Shown one piece after another: positions 2,827-56,961 of a stretch of 64,000 bases of DNA. How positions within the stretch are numbered: the stretch's first letter is position 1; each line of letters starts with the position of its first letter. A program made the position numbers and the translations under genes. The stretch lies in sequence record MT150133.1; one strand, 5' to 3'. Under the pieces are notes generated by a model. That model ran no database searches. It worked only from the letters and a program-made list of their open reading frames with translations, and was not told where the DNA came from. This DNA comes from Enterobacteria phage vB_EcoM_IME540.

Positions 2827-3399
2827 TCAACTCGTTATTTCTATCCAGTGCTTCCTGCACAATGACACGTAAGAATCGTTGCCACCTATAGAAACTTGGG
2901 CTCCGTCCTTAATTGCGATACCATCTTGGATACGAGCCGTCATAGTAGCTTTACGGCCGCAATGGCACACACCTTTGTACTCAACGAGTTTATCTGCCGT
3001 AGCGAGTAATTCAGCAGAGCCAGGAAACAGTTTACCCTGAAAATCAGTTCTTAGCCCATAACACATAACTGGAACATTATAATTGTCTACTATCTTCGCC
3101 AGTTGTTTTATCTGTGCAGGTTCTAAGAACTGTGCTTCATCCACAAATACACAGTGGATATCTTTTTGAGATTCAGCCCAACGATAGAACTCGTATAGGT
3201 CCATATCCGGAGTCACGGCATTAGCCTCTTGACTAATCCCTATACGAGACGAAATGCTATGGCTTGATTCTCTATTGTCTACCGCGGGCTTTAAAAGGAG
3301 TACGCCCATACCACGTTCTTTGTAGTTATGAGCTGCCGTTAGCAATGAAGCGGTTTTCCCGGAATTCATCGCCGCATAGTGAAACATCAAGCTTGCCAT
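2827..3399 (-). CDS. tk: thymidine kinase
   Basis: 190 aa. P-loop MNSGKTASLL, VFVDEAQF, and a C-terminal Cys cluster CHCGRKAT...SLCRKH. Matches the T4 Tk pattern and position. Confidence 0.92.
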   Translation of the reverse strand: MASLMFHYAAMNSGKTASLLTAAHNYKERGMGVLLLKPAVDNRESSHSISSRIGISQEANAVTPDMDLYEFYRWAESQKDIHCVFVDEAQFLEPAQIKQLAKIVDNYNVPVMCYGLRTDFQGKLFPGSAELLATADKLVEYKGVCHCGRKATMTARIQDGIAIKDGAQVSIGGNDSYVSLCRKHWIEITS

Positions 3400-4124
3400 T
3401 TAAATACAACTCCTCTATAAGAGCAATTAGGATAACCTTTGCTTATAGCTATCTTTTTAAACATATATGCTGAAGGCTTATTGGATTCTTCCCATAAGAG
3501 TTTTAATTCATCGTAAAATTTCCAAGATTCGTTTCTTATAGGAGAAGGTTTTCCTGCCATAGCGCCCTTTTTACCGTACATGGGATTCTTTTTGCCCTTT
3601 TTGGCGTTACTCATATTTTCTATGGTTTCAGCGCTATGTTTAAATCCTTTTAATTTTTTAGAGGCTAATCCTATTTTAGCTTTATGCTCATCACTAAATC
3701 CTATTCTATTGGAATAATGGTTTAAACCTTTATTAGAAGTGGTGAATTTAGAAGCTTCTATTCTGGCTTTGCTCCATTTAACTCCTTTTCTAGACCTAGA
3801 CATTTTCTGTTTAGTTAAATTAGATAATTTGGTTCCTTTCTTTTTACCTCTTCCGCCATCAGCAAAATTTAAAGAATGCTTACCATATTTTAATTTAGCC
3901 TTTTCAACTAAAGGAATTTCGGCGGCATACGCCTCTTCTTCAGATTCGAAGAATTCTAATATACGAGTTTTATAAGGATGCTTTTTACAAATATTTTTAA
4001 CTACCGTACCACTTCCATAATACCCGTCTGAAAGATTATCAGTGGAGTGTTTACCTACATAGTAATAATTTGCCTTATGGGTTTTTATTACAGTCAAGTA
4101 ATTATAATGGAATTCCTTTGCCAT
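3387..4124 (-). CDS. GIY-YIG family homing endonuclease (Seg-like)
   Basis: N-terminal NYLTVIKTHKANYYYVGKHS...GYYGSG (GIY-x10-YIG type). Lys-rich NUMOD-like repeats (SDEHKAKIG..., SAETIENMSNAKKGKKNPMYGKKG). Overlaps the tk start by 13 nt. Confidence 0.75.
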   Translation of the reverse strand: MAKEFHYNYLTVIKTHKANYYYVGKHSTDNLSDGYYGSGTVVKNICKKHPYKTRILEFFESEEEAYAAEIPLVEKAKLKYGKHSLNFADGGRGKKKGTKLSNLTKQKMSRSRKGVKWSKARIEASKFTTSNKGLNHYSNRIGFSDEHKAKIGLASKKLKGFKHSAETIENMSNAKKGKKNPMYGKKGAMAGKPSPIRNESWKFYDELKLLWEESNKPSAYMFKKIAISKGYPNCSYRGVVFKWQA

Positions 4125-5320: not shown

Positions 5321-5884
5321 TTAATATACCGCCTCAAACATCTTTTTAGATTTTAGATAATTGGCCTTTTCTAGAACTTCAGAAGCATATTTACTGCCTG
5401 CTTCGACGTTCCAGCCCGCATTATAAGAAGCAATCGCTTTTCTCAGGTCACCTTTGTGAACATCAATCCAATAAGACAGTTCAATGTAGGCCCAAGAGGC
5501 ACTGTTCTGTCGTTTTTGGACCATACGAATTATTTCTTTGTCTGACATCTTCCAACCTACCTGTTGAACACGACTTCTTAACGTAGGCAAGTAATTTTGG
5601 AACATGCCATAAGCATGGTGCTTATCTTTATTTAAACCCTGATTAATTCCGGCAGATGATTCCTGCCATAGTAATCCGGCCATAATATATCCTAATCCTT
5701 TTTGATTAGGGGTTTCTTTGAACTTTCCCGACTTTTGGTATTGTTCACCGAAAGCATACGCATAATGTAAATTATCGAGCTGGGTTTCTGTAAATACGGG
5801 TTCTGCTGCACTTACAGAAAACGAACCACACATAATAGCCGCTATTAAAGAATATTTAAGTTTTTTTAGAAAAATCATAATCAA
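5321..5884 (-). CDS. secreted soluble lytic transglycosylase (SLT domain)
   Basis: Signal peptide ...CGSFSVSAAEP. All three SLT motifs are present: LLWQESSAG (catalytic E-S), YGMFQ and ASYNAGWN. Confidence 0.7.
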   Translation of the reverse strand: MIMIFLKKLKYSLIAAIMCGSFSVSAAEPVFTETQLDNLHYAYAFGEQYQKSGKFKETPNQKGLGYIMAGLLWQESSAGINQGLNKDKHHAYGMFQNYLPTLRSRVQQVGWKMSDKEIIRMVQKRQNSASWAYIELSYWIDVHKGDLRKAIASYNAGWNVEAGSKYASEVLEKANYLKSKKMFEAVY

Positions 5885-6590
5885 TAAGTCCTCGGTAATC
5901 TACATTAGGGAAGCCGTTCTTAATTGCGATTTTACTAAATCTTCCACACTTGAGCTTATTATTATCTACCCATAATTTATATAATTGTGAATACATCGGT
6001 TCATGCCATATAGGGGATTTACGCAAAGAGGCTTTTTTCCTTTCTATAGTTTCTTTAGAATTTTGTATGGCTTTAAATTTTTGTCTATTTTCAGGATTTT
6101 CAAAATACTTAACCCGTTTTTCAGACATTTTAGCTTTTACTTTTGGCGAATTTAAAATTTCTTTGAGCCGTTCTTTAGAGCCTTCCTTTTCAAAATACTT
6201 TATTAAAGCCATTGAATGAGCAGCCCTATTTTCCTTTTTAGAGAAAAATAAAATTTTATTAATAGATTGCAATTTTGAAAATGATTCTTTAGCCAACTTA
6301 TAATTTTCAGAATCTACAAAATAAGACCTTTGTTTTGAATTTGAAGTAGAGCTCATATTTAACCAGGCAAAATTCAACCCATAGTGGTTTGGATTAGCTT
6401 TGGCTAGATACATATGGGCCAAATAATGTTCATCAGCATAAAGCTCAACTAAATTGTCTTGAGTGTCAGGACCACCAACACAACTCGGAATTATATGATG
6501 CTTTTCTGTATAGGCGTCATTAGGTGTATCCCTAGATAAGGCCGCATTTATTATTTTATAGTAGTCATATGGATATTTTATAGTTTCCAT
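5856..6590 (-). CDS. HNH family homing endonuclease
   Basis: N-terminal EKHHIIPSCVGGPDTQDNLVELYADEHYLAHM (HNH core), a basic repeat region, and a C-terminal module shared with the GIY-YIG ORF 3387-4124. Inserted between the SLT gene and regB. Confidence 0.75.
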   Translation of the reverse strand: METIKYPYDYYKIINAALSRDTPNDAYTEKHHIIPSCVGGPDTQDNLVELYADEHYLAHMYLAKANPNHYGLNFAWLNMSSTSNSKQRSYFVDSENYKLAKESFSKLQSINKILFFSKKENRAAHSMALIKYFEKEGSKERLKEILNSPKVKAKMSEKRVKYFENPENRQKFKAIQNSKETIERKKASLRKSPIWHEPMYSQLYKLWVDNNKLKCGRFSKIAIKNGFPNVDYRGLIDYDFSKKT

Positions 6591-7117: not shown

Positions 7118-7327
7118 TTATTCTTGGAATGGGGTAAGTTTTCCAGCAGCTGAACAAATTTCTACCAGTACAGGGTAAAACTCTTTCACTTGTTCAAGGC
7201 GTTGGGCTGCATACTGTACTTCACCTTCTTCGAGACAAGCCATTTGGTCGTCAAGCAAGTATTTGTGGTAGCCAGTACAGGCTTCACCGATGATACGCTG
7301 GAAATCTTGTAAACTTTCAATTTTCAT
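7118..7327 (-). CDS. hypothetical protein (69 aa)
   Basis: Track ORF trimmed to the ATG at 7327, which forms an ATGA overlap with the upstream stop. Confidence 0.55.
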   Translation of the reverse strand: MKIESLQDFQRIIGEACTGYHKYLLDDQMACLEEGEVQYAAQRLEQVKEFYPVLVEICSAAGKLTPFQE

Positions 7328-7605
7328 CAGTATTTTTCCTCGGGTTGGAAAACGGAACGACACGCCCACATACTTGCTTCTTTCAGACGGTCAATTGCAT
7401 TACGAATCTGGGTGATGCGTTCATGAGCCTGGTCTAGTTCTTGTTCAGAAACCTCTTCGGTATCTAAGTTCATATAATGAGTAACATGTTCTTCTTCCAG
7501 AGCTTTAAACATTAACCCAAGACGAACTTCAGCATCTTTGATAGCGTTTACTTTACCGATTTTATCGTCGGTATGCGGCTTATAACCCTTGATATCTTCA
7601 ATCAT
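7327..7605 (-). CDS. hypothetical protein (92 aa)
   Basis: Track ORF in translationally coupled packing. Confidence 0.55.
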   Translation of the reverse strand: MIEDIKGYKPHTDDKIGKVNAIKDAEVRLGLMFKALEEEHVTHYMNLDTEEVSEQELDQAHERITQIRNAIDRLKEASMWACRSVFQPEEKY

Positions 7606-8793: not shown

Positions 8794-9093
8794 TTAGAAA
8801 GAACCAGAACCTCTAATTGTGTTCTGGCGACCTTTATTTTCTAATTCGGAGTGGTCGATTTCATATGCTTGTGCTACGCCAAAGGCCTTTTTAACTTTAG
8901 CTAAAGAACCTTTAGATGTAACAATATTAAAAGTATTACCTTTGGTAAAATCAACAAAATCGACTTGTACGCCCTGTTTACCGAGGCTTGCTACAATAGC
9001 ATCAACATATTCTTGGTCTAAATTGCCTTGAACTCCAATTTGAAATGCTTTAGGAGCTTTGGCTTCTGTGATAAATTCTTGATAAGTTTTCAT
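8794..9093 (-). CDS. internal head protein (IP) with capsid-targeting sequence
   Basis: The N-terminus MKTYQEFITE|A matches the T4 IP capsid-targeting sequence (MKTYQEFIAE) with the gp21 cleavage context. 99 aa. Confidence 0.75.
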   Translation of the reverse strand: MKTYQEFITEAKAPKAFQIGVQGNLDQEYVDAIVASLGKQGVQVDFVDFTKGNTFNIVTSKGSLAKVKKAFGVAQAYEIDHSELENKGRQNTIRGSGSF

Positions 9094-9118
9094 TGTTATT
9101 CCTTAAGTTGATAGAAGT

Positions 9119-9148
9119 ATTCTATCACGGATTTAATTAAGCGTAAAT
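9119..9148 (-). promoter_or_regulatory. candidate early promoter (ATTTAC -18 nt- TGATAGAAT)
   Basis: Extended -10 TGATAGAAT lies 26 nt upstream of the IP ATG. The -35 lies in the last codons of denV. Confidence 0.4.
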
Positions 9149-9553
9149 AGCCTTGCCATAATGTTTGTACCAGGTAGGACGCTGTGCAATTTTTTCATCC
9201 AAACGGGTCTGAGATATAGCAATAGAAGCTTCGTGTGGAGTATAGTCACCACGGAATTCCTGAGGAATGCCACTAATGTCCTGGACAGTAGTATCCTTGA
9301 TATTAAAACCACGTTTTAAACATTCGGCTATAAGCTCAATTTGTCGCTTACGTAAAAATTCAAGCTTATCGTAAAAGAATGTAACATGGCCTGTGCCAAG
9401 GATAAAAGTAGGACTGATTTTGAAATCACGGACACGTTTACCATTAGCAACATGCTTACGAACTGCACCGAAAACACGTGGTAATTCACGATATTCAGCC
9501 ATTAAGTGTTGGTCGGCCAATTCAGATACTAAGGTAAGGTTGATACGAGTCAT
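9137..9553 (-). CDS. denV: endonuclease V (pyrimidine-dimer DNA glycosylase)
   Basis: 138 aa, as in T4. [28 protein letters not shown]...[13 protein letters not shown] closely matches T4 DenV. Confidence 0.95.
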
Positions 9554-9559
9554 TTTTTA

Positions 9560-9602
9560 ATCTCCTGTAGTTGATAGGTCTATAGTATCATGCCTACAGG
9601 AG
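9560..9602 (-). promoter_or_regulatory. 10-bp inverted repeat pairing the promoter spacer with the denV Shine-Dalgarno
   Basis: Minus strand GTTTACA-TCTCCTGTAG-GCATGATACTATAGACCTATCAA-CTACAGGAGA-TTAAAAAATG. The arms are perfect. Confidence 0.7.
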
Positions 9603-9609
9603 ATGTAAA
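9581..9609 (-). promoter_or_regulatory. early promoter (GTTTAC -17 nt- TGATACTAT)
   Basis: Conserved 15-mer present. Drives denV. Confidence 0.75.
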
Positions 9610-9610
9610 C

Positions 9611-10009
9611 TTATTTATAGGTTTTCATCCAATTCTTGAACAAAGCTGCGACGTCTTTCTCTTTAACGTTCAGTTTAACGTCCAACATTTTACCACCGGC
9701 AGCACGTGTCTGACGAATCTTAGCAGTACCGGTTTCGCCATTCCACTCAACATAATACTGTCCGGTGTTCATTGCAATACCGTCGCCGTAGTCTTCATTT
9801 TTAGAAGTGGTGAATGCCAGCTTCATAGTCTTAGATACACGAGCCTGCATGCCTGTCTGAAGGGCATTACGAACGCGAATAACCTGAGGAGTGGCCTGGG
9901 TCAGGTTTTCATTCAGTTCTTCAGTGAACTCTTCAGATTCAAACATCGCCAAAAGTTCTTTAGATGCAGGAATTACATTCTCTGCGATAAATTCATTATA
10001 AGTTTTCAT
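9611..10009 (-). CDS. internal head protein (IP) with capsid-targeting sequence
   Basis: [10 protein letters not shown]|NV... 132 aa. Lies between e and denV, where T4 has ipIII/ipII. The body is unrelated to the other IPs in the window. Confidence 0.7.
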
Positions 10010-10491: not shown

Positions 10492-10520
10492 ATACCTCCT
10501 GAGTATAGGAGGTATTTATA
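10492..10520 (-). promoter_or_regulatory. gene e late promoter TATAAATA plus SD-sequestering hairpin
   Basis: Minus strand TATAAATACCTCCTATACTCAGGAGGTATTATG. The 9-bp stem ATACCTCCT/AGGAGGTAT buries the SD, and the late start falls inside the hairpin. Same arrangement as known for T4 e. Confidence 0.75.
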
Positions 10521-17686: not shown

Positions 17687-17716
17687 ATAATATCTTAATC
17701 ATGAGCCCATGTAAAC
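17687..17716 (-). promoter_or_regulatory. early promoter (GTTTAC -18 nt- TATTAT) with 10-bp inverted repeat
   Basis: Minus strand GTTTAC-ATGGGCTCAT-GATTAAGATATT-ATGAGCCCAT. Arms lie at 17679-17688 and 17701-17710. Confidence 0.65.
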
Positions 17717-21176: not shown

Positions 21177-21206
21177 ATAGTACCATCACTAAAGCCCGTT
21201 GTAAAC
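21177..21206 (-). promoter_or_regulatory. early promoter (GTTTAC -18 nt- TGGTACTAT), variant 15-mer
   Basis: Minus strand GTTTACAACGGGCTTTAGTGATGGTACTATAGCCCTATCAAAAC. Short inverted repeat GGGCT/AGCCC. Confidence 0.6.
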
Positions 21207-21208
21207 AA

Positions 21209-21481
21209 TTATTTTAAATAAATTGCATATTTTTTATAACCAGCCGTCTCGTGGCGCAGCCCTTTTTCATTAGCAAAACGTTCAATATTGTTAATTTGAT
21301 TCTGGTCGAGTTCTGAAGTATCAAATACAAAAAAGTTTCGCTTATTGCCTAAAGTTACGTGATTAGTCAAATCGATGTTATAGAGATGATTTATATTATC
21401 AATCATGGTCTTAACAGATTTGTTAATTTTTACTTCTTCATTAAGAATAGATTCAGCGATAAATTCTTGGTATGATTTCAT
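21209..21481 (-). CDS. internal head protein (IP) with capsid-targeting sequence
   Basis: MKSYQEFIAE|SIL... 90 aa. Starts 1 nt after the stop of the upstream IP gene. Confidence 0.7.
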   Translation of the reverse strand: MKSYQEFIAESILNEEVKINKSVKTMIDNINHLYNIDLTNHVTLGNKRNFFVFDTSELDQNQINNIERFANEKGLRHETAGYKKYAIYLK

Positions 21482-21482
21482 T

Positions 21483-21707
21483 TTATTCAGCGCCAGCAGC
21501 TTTCAAAAGTTTTTTAAGATTGGCTATGCCGCCAGCAGAAAACGTGACCTTGCCACCTTTTTCATTGATAGAGCCAGTCAATTTAGCAAGCTTATCACTA
21601 GGGACTTTTTTAAAATCAGCCAGTGTGCCATCAAAGGTTTTTGTAACAATTGGCAGTTCATCTTCATGTCTTTTAGCTTCGGTGATAAATTCTTGATAAG
21701 TTTTCAT
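21483..21707 (-). CDS. internal head protein (IP) with capsid-targeting sequence
   Basis: MKTYQEFITE|AKRHEDE... 74 aa. Sits where T4 ipI lies, next to 57B. Confidence 0.7.
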   Translation of the reverse strand: MKTYQEFITEAKRHEDELPIVTKTFDGTLADFKKVPSDKLAKLTGSINEKGGKVTFSAGGIANLKKLLKAAGAE

Positions 21708-21744: not shown

Positions 21745-21773
21745 ATAGTATCATGCCTATAGACCTTGTAAAC
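21745..21773 (-). promoter_or_regulatory. early promoter (GTTTAC -17 nt- TGATACTAT) with 10-bp palindrome
   Basis: Minus strand GTTTACA-AGGTCTATAG-GCATGATA-CTATAGACCT-ATCAAAAC. Arms lie at 21739-21748 and 21757-21766. Confidence 0.7.
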
Positions 21774-21784
21774 AACTTTTTAAA

Positions 21785-22477
<693 letters not shown>

Positions 22478-25210: not shown

Positions 25211-25218
25211 TATTTATA
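25211..25218 (-). promoter_or_regulatory. late promoter TATAAATA (genes 4-2-3 leftward)
   Basis: Exact motif on the minus strand, 26 nt before ATG 25185. Back-to-back with the plus-strand promoter. Confidence 0.75.
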
Positions 25219-50078: not shown

Positions 50079-50570
50079 ATGGAACTTACGGATATCACTA
50101 GGGCCTTCGAGTCAGGTGACTTTGCACGCCCTAACCTTTTCGAAGTGGAAATTCCATTTCTGGGTAAAAACTTTAGCTTTAAATGTAAAGCAGCACCTAT
50201 GCCGGCAGGCATTGTAGAAAAAGTACCGGTTGGCTACATGAACCGTAAAATTAACGTAGCCGGTGACCGTACGTTTGATGATTGGACCATTACCATTTAT
50301 AACGATGATGCACATGACACCCGTCAAGCAATTGTCGATTGGCAGAATCTCTGTCACGGTATGACCAATGAAATTACCGGTGCAGCACCTGCAGAATATA
50401 AGAAACAAGCAGTAGTTCGCCAGTTCCATCGTGACGGCAAGACTGTGACCAAAGAAGTTACAATTTACGGCTTATGGCCTACTAACGTTGGTGAAGTCCA
50501 GATGGACTGGGACTCGAATAACGAGGTAGAAACATTTGAAAGCACATTTGCTATTGACTGGTGGGAATAA
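50079..50570 (+). CDS. 19: gp19 tail tube protein
   Basis: 163 aa, as in T4. Synteny. FARPNLFEVEIPFLG... Confidence 0.92.
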   Translation: MELTDITRAFESGDFARPNLFEVEIPFLGKNFSFKCKAAPMPAGIVEKVPVGYMNRKINVAGDRTFDDWTITIYNDDAHDTRQAIVDWQNLCHGMTNEITGAAPAEYKKQAVVRQFHRDGKTVTKEVTIYGLWPTNVGEVQMDWDSNNEVETFESTFAIDWWE

Positions 50571-50637: not shown

Positions 50638-51219
50638 ATGTATTGTACTTACTTAACCATATACACGGGGTCTAAACTACCCCGTCGTTATATTGGCTCA
50701 ACATACGTTGAAAGGATTCTCAAAGAAGGATATAATGGTTCTGTATTATCCCAAGCATATAAAAAGATTTGGAATCTAGAACGTAAAGAAAATCCGCACC
50801 TTTTCAAAACCAGAATTTTATCTTTATTTGAAACCGATAAAGAAGCTCGTATAGCTGAGAAAGAGCTTCAAATAAAGTATAATGTAGTTAAATCTAAAAA
50901 CTATATAAATATGTCATTAGCTCAGCCTGACGGGTTCTTTGGAATGTCTCGTAAAGGGATTCCAATGAGTGAACATGCCAAACAGCTACAAAGAGATTGT
51001 AGGTTAGGTAAAAAGAGGCCTGAACATTCTAAAGCTCTAAAAGGACGTAAGCGACCAGACCAAGCCAAAGCTATGTCTGGTGAAGGTAATCCGATGTTTG
51101 GTAAAGAACATCCGGCTAAAGGCAAAAAGATTAATCAGCCAAGGATGATTTGCCCTATCTGTGGTGTTGAATCAACTCGTTCGGCTATAACACGTTATCA
51201 CAAACATGAAAATGAATGA
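50638..51219 (+). CDS. GIY-YIG homing endonuclease between genes 19 and 20
   Basis: 193 aa. MYCTYLTIYTGSKLPRRYIGSTY...GYNGS (GIY-YIG type). NUMOD3-like repeats (PMSEHAKQLQ, RPEHSKALKGRKRP, GEGNPMFGKEHPAKGK). C-terminal CPICG zinc motif. Confidence 0.75.
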   Translation: MYCTYLTIYTGSKLPRRYIGSTYVERILKEGYNGSVLSQAYKKIWNLERKENPHLFKTRILSLFETDKEARIAEKELQIKYNVVKSKNYINMSLAQPDGFFGMSRKGIPMSEHAKQLQRDCRLGKKRPEHSKALKGRKRPDQAKAMSGEGNPMFGKEHPAKGKKINQPRMICPICGVESTRSAITRYHKHENE

Positions 51220-53096: not shown

Positions 53097-53524
53097 TGTT
53101 CCTTATCCCTGATGATTACGAATTAACTCTAGAAAGCGTAGAGGCCAAAATTCCAGAAGCACAGGGACGTTTTGCTGCTCTTTCTGAAGCGCTCGAGAAA
53201 AGCGATATAAATAATCTTGTAGAGAACATGATTGCTGAAGGCGATATCGAATGTGCTATCGCTCTTGGTTCTTTAAATGAATCAATGGCTCTTAACGAAT
53301 TTATAGTTAAACACGTTTCCTCTAAAGGTGAGCTTACTCGTACTAAAGATATTAAAACCCGTCAACGTAATGCGTTCCAAACGACAGGTTTATCTAAAGC
53401 AAAACGCCGTCAGATTGCTCGTAAAGCATCTAAAACCAAACGTGCTAATCCGTCTACTCAAGTACGTGCCGAACGTAAGCGTAAGAAAGCCCGTTCTAAA
53501 CGTAAAGCTTTTGGACTCAACTAA
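53096..53524 (+). CDS. 68: gp68 prohead core protein
   Basis: 142 aa (T4 141). Basic C-terminus. Synteny. Confidence 0.85.
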
Positions 53525-54159
53525 TGAAACCTGAATTGCTCATCGAACATTGGGGACAACCAGGTGAAATTATCGATGGGGTTCCTATGTTGGAATCTCA
53601 TGATGGAAAAAATTCTGGGCTTGCTCCCGGCCTTTATATAGAAGGCATTTTCATGCAAGCAGAGGTAGTTAACCGTAATAAACGCCTTTACCCAAAACCT
53701 ATTTTGGAAAAAGCCGTTGCCGATTATATGGCAGAACAGGTTGCTACTAAACAAGCTTTAGGAGAATTAAACCACCCACCTCGTGCTAACGTTGACCCTA
53801 TGCAAGCTGCTATCATTATTGAAGATATGTGGTGGAAAGGTAATGATGTTTATGGACGTGCACGTATCATCGAAGGTGACCATGGCCCTGGTGATAAACT
53901 AGCTGCAAATATCCGAGCTGGCTGGGTTCCTGGTGTTAGTTCTCGCGGTCTTGGTTCTTTAACTGAAACCAATAAAGGATATAAGCGTGTAAACGAAGGT
54001 TATAAATTAACCGTCGGTGTTGATGCAGTATGGGGACCATCTGCTCCTGATGCTTATGTAACTCCGAAGCAAATTACAGAATCACAAACGGTAGAAACCG
54101 ATACCAGTGCCGATGACGCCTTTATGGCTCTCGCAGAGGCCATGAAAAAAGCGTTATAA
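53524..54159 (+). CDS. 21: gp21 prohead core protease
   Basis: 211 aa (T4 212). LGELNHP and SSRGLGS motifs. Synteny. Confidence 0.92.
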   Translation: MKPELLIEHWGQPGEIIDGVPMLESHDGKNSGLAPGLYIEGIFMQAEVVNRNKRLYPKPILEKAVADYMAEQVATKQALGELNHPPRANVDPMQAAIIIEDMWWKGNDVYGRARIIEGDHGPGDKLAANIRAGWVPGVSSRGLGSLTETNKGYKRVNEGYKLTVGVDAVWGPSAPDAYVTPKQITESQTVETDTSADDAFMALAEAMKKAL

Positions 54160-56931: not shown

Positions 56932-56961
56932 ATAGTAACATGTGAGAATCTTGCTGTAAAC
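56932..56961 (-). promoter_or_regulatory. early promoter (GTTTAC -18 nt- TGTTACTAT)
   Basis: Conserved 15-mer TACTATAGACCTATC present. Interleaved with the plus-strand late promoter of gene 24. Confidence 0.7.

Follow-up and report, generated by a model that had tools for sequence, protein, structure and literature searches.

Four internal-protein genes of a Dhakavirus share a T4-type capsid-targeting leader and carry unrelated, possibly anti-defence cargos

The stretch of DNA analysed here, 64,000 nucleotides (nt) from Enterobacteria phage vB_EcoM_IME540 (sequence record MT150133.1) and called the window in the following, contains four small open reading frames (ORFs) that begin with nearly the same ten codons and have the hallmarks of T4-type internal-protein (IP) genes. 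Judged by its sequence, the window is from a Dhakavirus, a JS98/QL01-like T4-type member of the Tevenvirinae. The four genes lie on the minus strand, two at each of two loci. At locus 1, the minus-strand order is nudE, e, IPb, denV, IPa, vs.8, with IPb (132 amino acids [aa]) at 9611..10009 and IPa (99 aa) at 8794..9093; at locus 2, it is 1, 57A, 57B, Ip8, Ip9, trna.4, with Ip8 (74 aa) at 21483..21707 and Ip9 (90 aa) at 21209..21481. The identity to Escherichia phage QL01 is 97% at locus 1 and 99.9% at locus 2, and the locus-2 genes are annotated as Ip8 and Ip9 in QL01, IME08 and WG01. Both loci are syntenic with the IP loci of T4, which harbour ipIII and ipII (locus 1) and ipI (locus 2), and with those of QL01, and they correspond to the hyperplastic loci of T4-type phages. 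The order of genes within locus 1 differs, being e-ipIII-ipII-denV in T4 and e-IPb-denV-IPa in the window.

An earlier note on this DNA had described four ORFs with the leader MK(T/S)Y(Q/N)EFI(A/T)E at these positions, and indeed, the ORF listing gives all four, each on the minus strand. The parts that follow the glutamate of the leader are 89 aa (IPa), 122 aa (IPb), 80 aa (Ip9) and 64 aa (Ip8) long, as the note had stated and as the ORF translations show. These mature parts had been called unrelated. All-against-all BLASTP with residues 11 onward gave a best E value of 0.66, and the four proteins belong to four different PHROGs (2667, 15461, 7673 and 8765, in the same order), with cross-matches limited to the first 16 to 46 residues. 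The 26-nt identity that had been reported between IPa and Ip8 was found as well: GTGATAAATTCTTGATAAGTTTTCAT is present without any mismatch at 9068-9093 and at 21682-21707 and with 3 mismatches also at 9984-10009, and it did not occur once in 100 shuffles. That the proteins share nothing more than the 10-aa leader is correct for the four as a group, but IPa and Ip8 have 12 residues in common (MKTYQEFITEAK). In a six-frame scan of the 64 kb with a strict and a relaxed motif, the leader was confined to the four ORFs, and no further IP gene with an IPI-type leader (MKTFKEF...) was found in the window with the relaxed motif. The 30-nt stretches that code for the leader are identical at 23 to 29 of 30 positions in pairwise comparisons of the four genes, the highest value being that of IPa (9064..9093, minus strand), which is 29/30 identical to Ip8. 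The flanking sequences are no more alike than expected by chance (9 to 13 of 40 nt upstream, 11 to 14 of 30 nt downstream). The mature cargos have isoelectric points (pI) of 8.0 to 9.6. These data confirm that four ORFs of the window share one leader and carry unrelated cargos.

The leader had been assigned to the capsid-targeting sequence (CTS) of T4, and this assignment stands, since the window leaders are identical or nearly identical to the leader of T4 IPII and IPIII (MKTYQEFIAE) and the critical residues are kept. The first 10 residues of IPIII are enough for packaging (Mullaney & Black 1996, as summarised in a passage of PMC9026906), and according to that passage, residues 4 and 7 of the CTS are the main determinants of targeting, and residues 8 and 10 those of processing. 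None of the four window proteins departs from Y4, F7, I8 and E10, and variation is found at positions 3, 5 and 9 only. The window also encodes gp21, the prohead core protease that would be expected to remove the CTS (53524..54159, plus strand; Pfam Peptidase_S77, E = 6.4e-103), and beside it lie gp20 and the core genes gp67, gp68 and gp22, which were assigned by ORF position. We conclude that the four ORFs are almost certainly genuine CTS-bearing IP genes; by analogy with T4, their products are very probably packaged and processed.

Three of the four genes belong to known IP families. IPa (CTS MKTYQEFITE plus cargo) is an Ip7-like protein with a match to PHROG 2667 ("internal head protein", E = 7e-43); it was found in 283 phage records and is 50% identical to Ip7 of RB15 (E = 3e-29). 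AlphaFold predicted a beta-alpha-beta-beta-alpha-beta fold for IPa (predicted local distance difference test [pLDDT] score of 75.8). This fold was rejected as a functional clue, since Foldseek searches against the PDB yielded only a generic ferredoxin/ACT-like sandwich (E of at least 7e-3, template modelling [TM] scores of 0.4 to 0.55). Ip8 (CTS MKTYQEFITE; PHROG 8765, E = 8e-27) is 85% identical to Ip8 of RB15 (E = 1e-46), is annotated as "Ip8" in QL01 and occurs in 107 phage records. Ip9 (CTS MKSYQEFIAE; PHROG 7673, E = 6.5e-56) starts 1 nt past the stop codon of Ip8, is 77% identical to Ip9 of RB15 (E = 4e-53), is annotated as "Ip9 gene product" in QL01 and occurs in 192 phage records. Pfam searches with the four proteins gave only sub-threshold noise, and a sequence search of the PDB gave only weak, unrelated matches for IPa and Ip8 and none for Ip9.

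IPb belongs to PHROG 15461 ("unknown function", E = 1e-91) and was found in 49 phage records; all 14 rows among the matches listed read "hypothetical protein". Its family is narrow, with 17 clusters, and occurs in Dhakavirus and in Klebsiella (Marfa-like), Serratia and Erwinia phages, and IPb had no match among the four IPs of RB15 (Ip5, Ip9, Ip7 and Ip8). IPb begins within gene e, with the first 14 nt of its reading frame (9996-10009) lying in the last codons of e, and its Asn5 codon (AAT) shares nucleotides with the TAA stop codon of e. This overlap may be the reason why the leader reads MKTYN in IPb and also in the gene that replaces it in phage IME341 (see below). The AlphaFold model of IPb is unreliable (pLDDT of 55). 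A PDB match to the small domain of M.HhaI (E = 0.011) was dismissed as chance, since it disappeared when the family profile was used and an equally weak match to flagellin came up instead. An exhaustive HMMER search with the IPb cargo retrieved only CTS proteins, one 194-aa fusion protein and two large repeat proteins; the latter (E = 1e-6 and 2e-5) have a short motif of IPb in their repeats and were judged uninformative. The fusion protein, P0039, is of metagenomic origin, has a diverged leader (MKSFDQYIMES) and appears to fuse two different IP cargos. The N-terminal one looks, on visual comparison, like the "GAFKVRAFAGDAEDFG..." family of IPs, and the one that follows is an IPb cargo (49% identity). 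This arrangement suggests that adjacent IP genes may fuse.

The cargo of Ip9 is also found without a CTS. A word-indexed protein search with the cargo missed these relatives, but tblastn recovered them in 12 Kagunavirus-type siphophage genomes of 43 to 45 kb. The proteins (Bas70_0057 and homologues, for example at L130:2507-2725 and L132:3001-3219, both on the plus strand) are 53% identical to Ip9 residues 19-90 (window 21209-21451). They are 72 aa long, start with MNKATAS and have no in-frame extension. In Bas70, the one annotated context examined, a series of small hypothetical genes running rightward opens with the homologue, which lies beside a divergent intergenic region. Some Kagunavirus homologues are labelled "internal head protein", which is probably the result of annotation transfer. 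The CTS-less homologue shows that the Ip9 cargo can be an independent module outside T4-type phages, and it also suggests that the target of Ip9 may not be tied to DNA modification of the T-even type. A second I/L-x-E motif (LNE) was seen soon after the CTS in IPb (residues 32-34, 9908-9916) and in Ip9 (residues 13-15, 21437-21445). In IPb, L32 and E34 are invariant, whereas the stretch from residue 11 to 30, which is predicted to be disordered, varies among relatives or is missing from them. In view of this second motif, and of the alignment of the CTS-less Kagunavirus protein from Ip9 residue 19, mature IPb and Ip9 may start later than residue 11.

Nine early promoter sites with the pattern GTTTAC-N15-19-TAnnnT were found on the minus strand of the window, starting at 56961, 21773, 21206, 18047, 17716, 17259, 9610, 7113 and 1743. 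The core GTTTACA-N(about 14)-GATACTATAGACCTATCAA is common to seven sites, and those at 17716 and 17259 diverge. An inverted repeat brackets the -10 region in the cassettes read (at least 9610, 7113, 21773 and 21206), and in the cassettes at 9610 and 7113, the Shine-Dalgarno sequence lies within the 3' arm of the repeat. The cassettes appear to be the promoter early stem-loop (PeSL)-like elements of T-even phages. The early-promoter cassette that had been placed just upstream of the IP genes is indeed found directly upstream of Ip8, where it is canonical and has the stem-loop (GTTTACA...GATACTATAGACCTATCAA; 21745..21773, minus strand). IPa is preceded only by a degenerate promoter-like site (9119..9147, minus strand; TTTACG-17-TAGAAT, then CTATCAA), which is a consensus match only, and the claim fails for IPb, whose start lies inside e, and for Ip9 with its start 1 nt after Ip8. 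Two further cassettes on the minus strand are located at the loci. One of them (21177..21206) lies between Ip9 and trna.4 and closes locus 2 on its right side; the other (9582..9610) lies just after the stop codon of IPb and upstream of denV, and its first 13 nt are GTTTACATCTCCT. Candidate late promoters with the consensus TATAAATA are present on the minus strand over the last codons and the stop codon of IPb (9612..9619), from where denV and IPa could be transcribed, and upstream of e (10513..10520), from where e and IPb could be transcribed; both are consensus matches only.

The earlier note had proposed that the leader provides a constant 5' anchor for swapping cargo, and comparison with relatives bears this out. 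At locus 1, IME341 and the window are 92% identical over 715 nt, from gene e through nt 24 of the CTS (ATGAAAACTTATAATGAATTTATC). The stretch of 121 nt at the junction contains 1 mismatch; after it, IME341 has a T4-ipII-type gene and the window has IPb, and the homology returns just before the start codon of denV. By comparison of the two sequences, IME341 is a case of true cargo replacement with the left junction inside the CTS, that is, in the CTS coding segment that IPb occupies in the window (9980..10009, minus strand). At locus 2, Salmonella phage ABTNLS3 has no Ip8. Its junction consists of the Ip8 promoter, codons 1-4 of the Ip8 type, the 12-nt CAAGAATTTATC that is common to both leaders, and then sequence of the Ip9 type. 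As read from this junction, ABTNLS3 is a phage that apparently lost Ip8 by a CTS-to-CTS crossover within CAAGAATTTATC; the partners would have been the CTS coding segments that correspond to 21678..21707 (Ip8) and 21452..21481 (Ip9) of the window, both on the minus strand.

Exchange is not restricted to the CTS; a promoter-bounded module is exchanged as well. QL01 (3057-3746) has an extra module of 690 nt, an early promoter plus IpIII, between IPb and denV. A direct repeat of 13 nt, GTTTACATCTCCT (window 9598-9610), at the -35 end of two promoter cassettes, marks the borders of this indel. Neither IpIII nor the early promoter belonging to it is present in the window, as in IME281 and unlike in QL01 and JS98, and no orthologue of IpIII, IpII or IPI was found anywhere in the window. 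The order of IP genes varies too: it is Ip5-Ip9-Ip7-Ip8 in RB15, and WG01 has a 69-aa IP, Ip8, Ip9 and Ip7 at locus 2, so that the Ip7-family gene is at locus 2 in RB15 and WG01 and at locus 1 here. The additional 69-aa CTS-bearing gene (MKTYNEFLTEAMES...) of WG01 (1554-1763) is also present in IME281 (1187-1396), where, as in WG01, it is annotated as "hypothetical" and overlaps the end of 57B; it is absent from the window, with the indel junction at the 57B stop codon (21787-21793). From these comparisons, CTS and promoter sequences in all likelihood act as recombination junctions. Passages of PMC2839356 mention that PeSL-like early-promoter elements were seen at the two IP loci by Repoila et al., that more than 30 IP variants are known and that the shuffling of IP genes may be kept within the two loci by the PeSL-like elements.

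To see at which level the leader is conserved, IMG/VR was scanned with a degenerate CTS pattern, which gave at least 120 loci. On these, the CTS heads at least 143 different ORFs (minimum length, 40 aa), which fall into at least 65 cargo families with lengths of 52 to 610 aa. Some of these ORFs are on metagenomic contigs of 4 to 235 kb, and the tag may extend beyond coliphage IP loci and to large proteins. When 132 different coding sequences of the CTS were compared, the choice of synonymous codons was that of ordinary codon usage; thus, the leader is conserved at the peptide level. Near-identity of the copies is limited to the lineage of the window. In the window, Ile8 is encoded by ATC in all four genes, although ATC accounts for 26% of the Ile codons of the window (p of about 0.005). 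Local homogenisation fits both this preference and the extra likeness of the CTS copies in the window, a likeness that provides the identities of 12 to 26 nt seen at the junctions.

Known anti-CBASS (cyclic oligonucleotide-based antiphage signalling system) genes lie beside both IP loci. At locus 2, it is gene 57B, encoding Acb1 (21785..22240, minus strand; Pfam Acb1, E = 8.9e-59), directly upstream of Ip8; at locus 1, it is a vs.4-like gene of the Acb2/Tad1 type (7327..7605, minus strand; Pfam Acb2_Tad1_hairpin, E = 1.3e-15), about 1.2 kb downstream of IPa. Elsewhere in the window, two free-standing ORFs between or next to conserved genes may encode homing endonucleases: one of 193 aa (50638-51219, plus strand) between a 163-aa ORF taken as gene 19 (50079-50570) and gp20, and one of 244 aa (5856-6590, minus strand) with an HNH-like "EKHHIIP...DNL" motif beside regB. 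Neither had a Pfam match at E of 1e-3 or below.

IPs are said to have been described as injected anti-restriction proteins by Bair and colleagues in 2007. Of the T4 proteins Ip1, Ip2 and Ip3, each blocks a GmrSD enzyme of its own, without cross-protection (Silas et al. 2025, PMC12373910), and the authors of that study proposed GmrSD variants as the targets of every protein encoded at the two Ip loci. If the IPs of the window work like those of T4, the CTS would bind to the scaffolding core during prohead assembly and carry the cargo into the head, gp21 would cut after Glu10 (I-x-E), and the freed cargo would remain in the head and be ejected with the DNA into the next host. Being ejected with the DNA, it would act ahead of any phage gene expression. 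If the analogy extends to what T4 Ip1, Ip2 and Ip3 do, each cargo would neutralise one particular first-line host defence, most likely a type IV restriction enzyme of the GmrSD/BrxU type or another nuclease that attacks hypermodified phage DNA. The repertoire would be rebuilt at the CTS coding sequence, by replacement or deletion of cargos, and at the early promoter cassettes, by gain or loss of promoter-plus-IP units. We give this overall explanation, Dhakavirus IP genes for injected anti-defence cargos that recombine at CTS and promoter sequences, a probability of about 75%. Within it, an anti-defence function of the four cargos appears likely from the T4 precedent, and a type IV restriction enzyme as the specific target has, on the same precedent, a little less than an even chance.

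Several points weigh against this explanation. Beyond residues 1-21, which include the leader, BLASTP found no homology of the cargos to T4 Ip1, Ip2 or Ip3, and since the cargos resemble neither these proteins nor any Pfam family or solved structure, their function is argued from analogy and context. Dhakaviruses are predicted to contain arabinosylated 5-hydroxycytosine and not glucosyl-hydroxymethylcytosine (glucosyl-hmC) (PMC13326640), and homologues of Ip8 and Ip9 occur in phages of several genera, with the Ip9 cargo even in a siphophage; thus, a strict rule by which each IP blocks one GmrSD enzyme specific for glucosyl-hmC may not transfer. A single exact match to the late-promoter consensus, again a consensus match only, precedes Ip8 and Ip9 on their coding strand, about 3.5 kb away at 25218, and therefore, late synthesis of Ip8 and Ip9, which is needed for packaging, has to be assumed from read-through. 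Finally, a literature search found no virion proteomics of Ip7, Ip8, Ip9, IPb or JS98.

The basic pI of the mature cargos would also fit packaged IPs with a generic physical job such as DNA charge neutralisation, packing or ejection, in which case it would matter little which cargo is carried, and the diversity of cargos would reflect drift and replacement. No recognisable enzymatic or binding domain was found by Pfam, PDB and Foldseek searches, which agrees with such a role, and the phage manages without the extra IpIII of QL01, suggesting that IPs are interchangeable. However, the T4 IPs were once thought to be generic too and each block one specific GmrSD enzyme (PMC12373910). Moreover, each cargo family is conserved in many phages (283, 49, 192 and 107 records for IPa, IPb, Ip9 and Ip8), the model of IPa predicts a globular protein with a defined fold, and the Ip9 cargo is kept without a CTS in siphophages that could not package it in this way. 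A generic role is therefore quite unlikely. If, on the other hand, some IPs, chiefly Ip8 and Ip9, were early cytoplasmic proteins that are little packaged, their CTS would be a leftover of recombination. The canonical early promoter ahead of Ip8/Ip9 with no late consensus within 3.5 kb upstream would then make sense, as would the free-standing Ip9 cargo gene of Kagunavirus phages, and T4 IPIII without its CTS is active in the cytoplasm when expressed from a plasmid (Srikant et al. 2022, PMC9391042). But every critical CTS residue is kept in all four proteins while the flanks are unconstrained, and the 132 CTS sequences conserve the peptide and not the codons, which argues for selection on peptide function and against a DNA relic. 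T4 IP genes are also transcribed early, and yet their products are packaged. We consider a mainly cytoplasmic role of these proteins very unlikely.

The common N terminus could also be a translational or mRNA-level element, for example, an efficient initiation region, instead of a targeting signal. The 26 nt that are identical in two genes and the ATC codon for Ile8 in all four, in a window in which 26% of the Ile codons are ATC, would be in line with such an element. This is extremely improbable, since in IMG/VR the peptide is conserved and the codons vary, the peptide equals the experimentally defined CTS of T4, the genes occupy the T4 IP loci and gp21 is present. The explanation as packaged and injected anti-defence proteins thus remains the preferred one. 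A bolder version of it, which we offer only tentatively and hold to be rather doubtful, is that the CTS is a portable "inject-me" tag whose coding sequence is the site of recombination and by which T4-type phages would make injected, pre-made effectors out of anti-defence genes that are otherwise ordinary early genes. This would be exemplified by Ip9, whose cargo is a CTS-less gene in Kagunavirus siphophages and would be a CTS-tagged head protein in Tequatrovirus and Dhakavirus phages, and IPb would be a further, unannotated injected effector. If this were true, the target of Ip9 would probably be a defence that is independent of glycosylated cytosine, which would contradict the proposal that GmrSD variants are the targets throughout the two Ip loci.

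Injected IPs are the earliest-acting counter-defence of T4-type phages, and since 2022-2025, all three T4 IPs are known to disarm specific type IV restriction enzymes that limit the host range on natural E. coli. Because the phage of the window carries a completely different set of IPs and probably a different DNA modification, the four proteins described here are ready-made probes for the first-line defences against JS98-like therapeutic phages. The mapped junctions, two in the 30-nt CTS and one in an early promoter, give a concrete and testable picture of how the repertoire is exchanged and suggest that cargos of choice could be engineered into these genes. The established concept of IPs is unchanged by these data; what they add to it is detail and one unannotated member.

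The presence of such genes is ordinary for a T4-type phage, and the finding, although real and correctly read in the earlier note, is already known: polymorphic IP genes with a common leader at two hyperplastic loci with early-promoter elements were described by Repoila et al. 1994 and Comeau et al. 2007 (as reported in passages of PMC2839356), and in close relatives, all but one of the four genes have already been given IP names. The additions made here are modest, namely IPb as an unannotated member, two junctions internal to the CTS, the absence of IpIII in comparison to QL01, and a CTS-less siphophage homologue of Ip9. The window resembles T4 with its IPII and IPIII in the Y4/F7/I8/E10 leader, the e-denV locus, gp21 and the small basic products, but there is no similarity past residues 1-21 and the gene order differs. 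With T4 Ip1 (IPI*), Ip2 and Ip3 it shares the hotspots, unrelated cargos behind one leader and, as we infer, the same delivery logic; the cargos, however, are not homologous, and the DNA modification is predicted to be different (arabinosyl-5-hydroxycytosine, PMC13326640). Ip7, Ip8 and Ip9 of RB15 (GenBank Z35082; Repoila et al. 1994, EMBO J 13:4181) have homologous cargos, the leader and the 57B-trna.4 hyperplastic locus in common with the window. In RB15, there are four modules (Ip5-Ip9-Ip7-Ip8), each with an early promoter, whereas in the window Ip8 and Ip9 lie behind one promoter and the Ip7-family gene is downstream of denV. The window can also be compared with the PeSL cassettes that mediate modular shuffling (Arbiol et al. 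2010, PMC2839356; Comeau et al. 2014, PMC4122927): near-identical stem-loop early promoters lie upstream of Ip8, downstream of Ip9 and downstream of IPb, and the IpIII indel has its junction in such a cassette. However, of the three junctions examined, two fall within the CTS coding sequence, IPb and Ip9 have no upstream cassette of their own, and that of IPa is degenerate; furthermore, the window cassettes are of the T4 early promoter type, whereas the PeSLs of RB49 are sigma-70-like (PMC2839356). Bas70_0057 of Kagunavirus (Guernseyvirinae), finally, has a cargo homologous to that of Ip9 (53%), but without the CTS and in a small-gene array of a siphophage.

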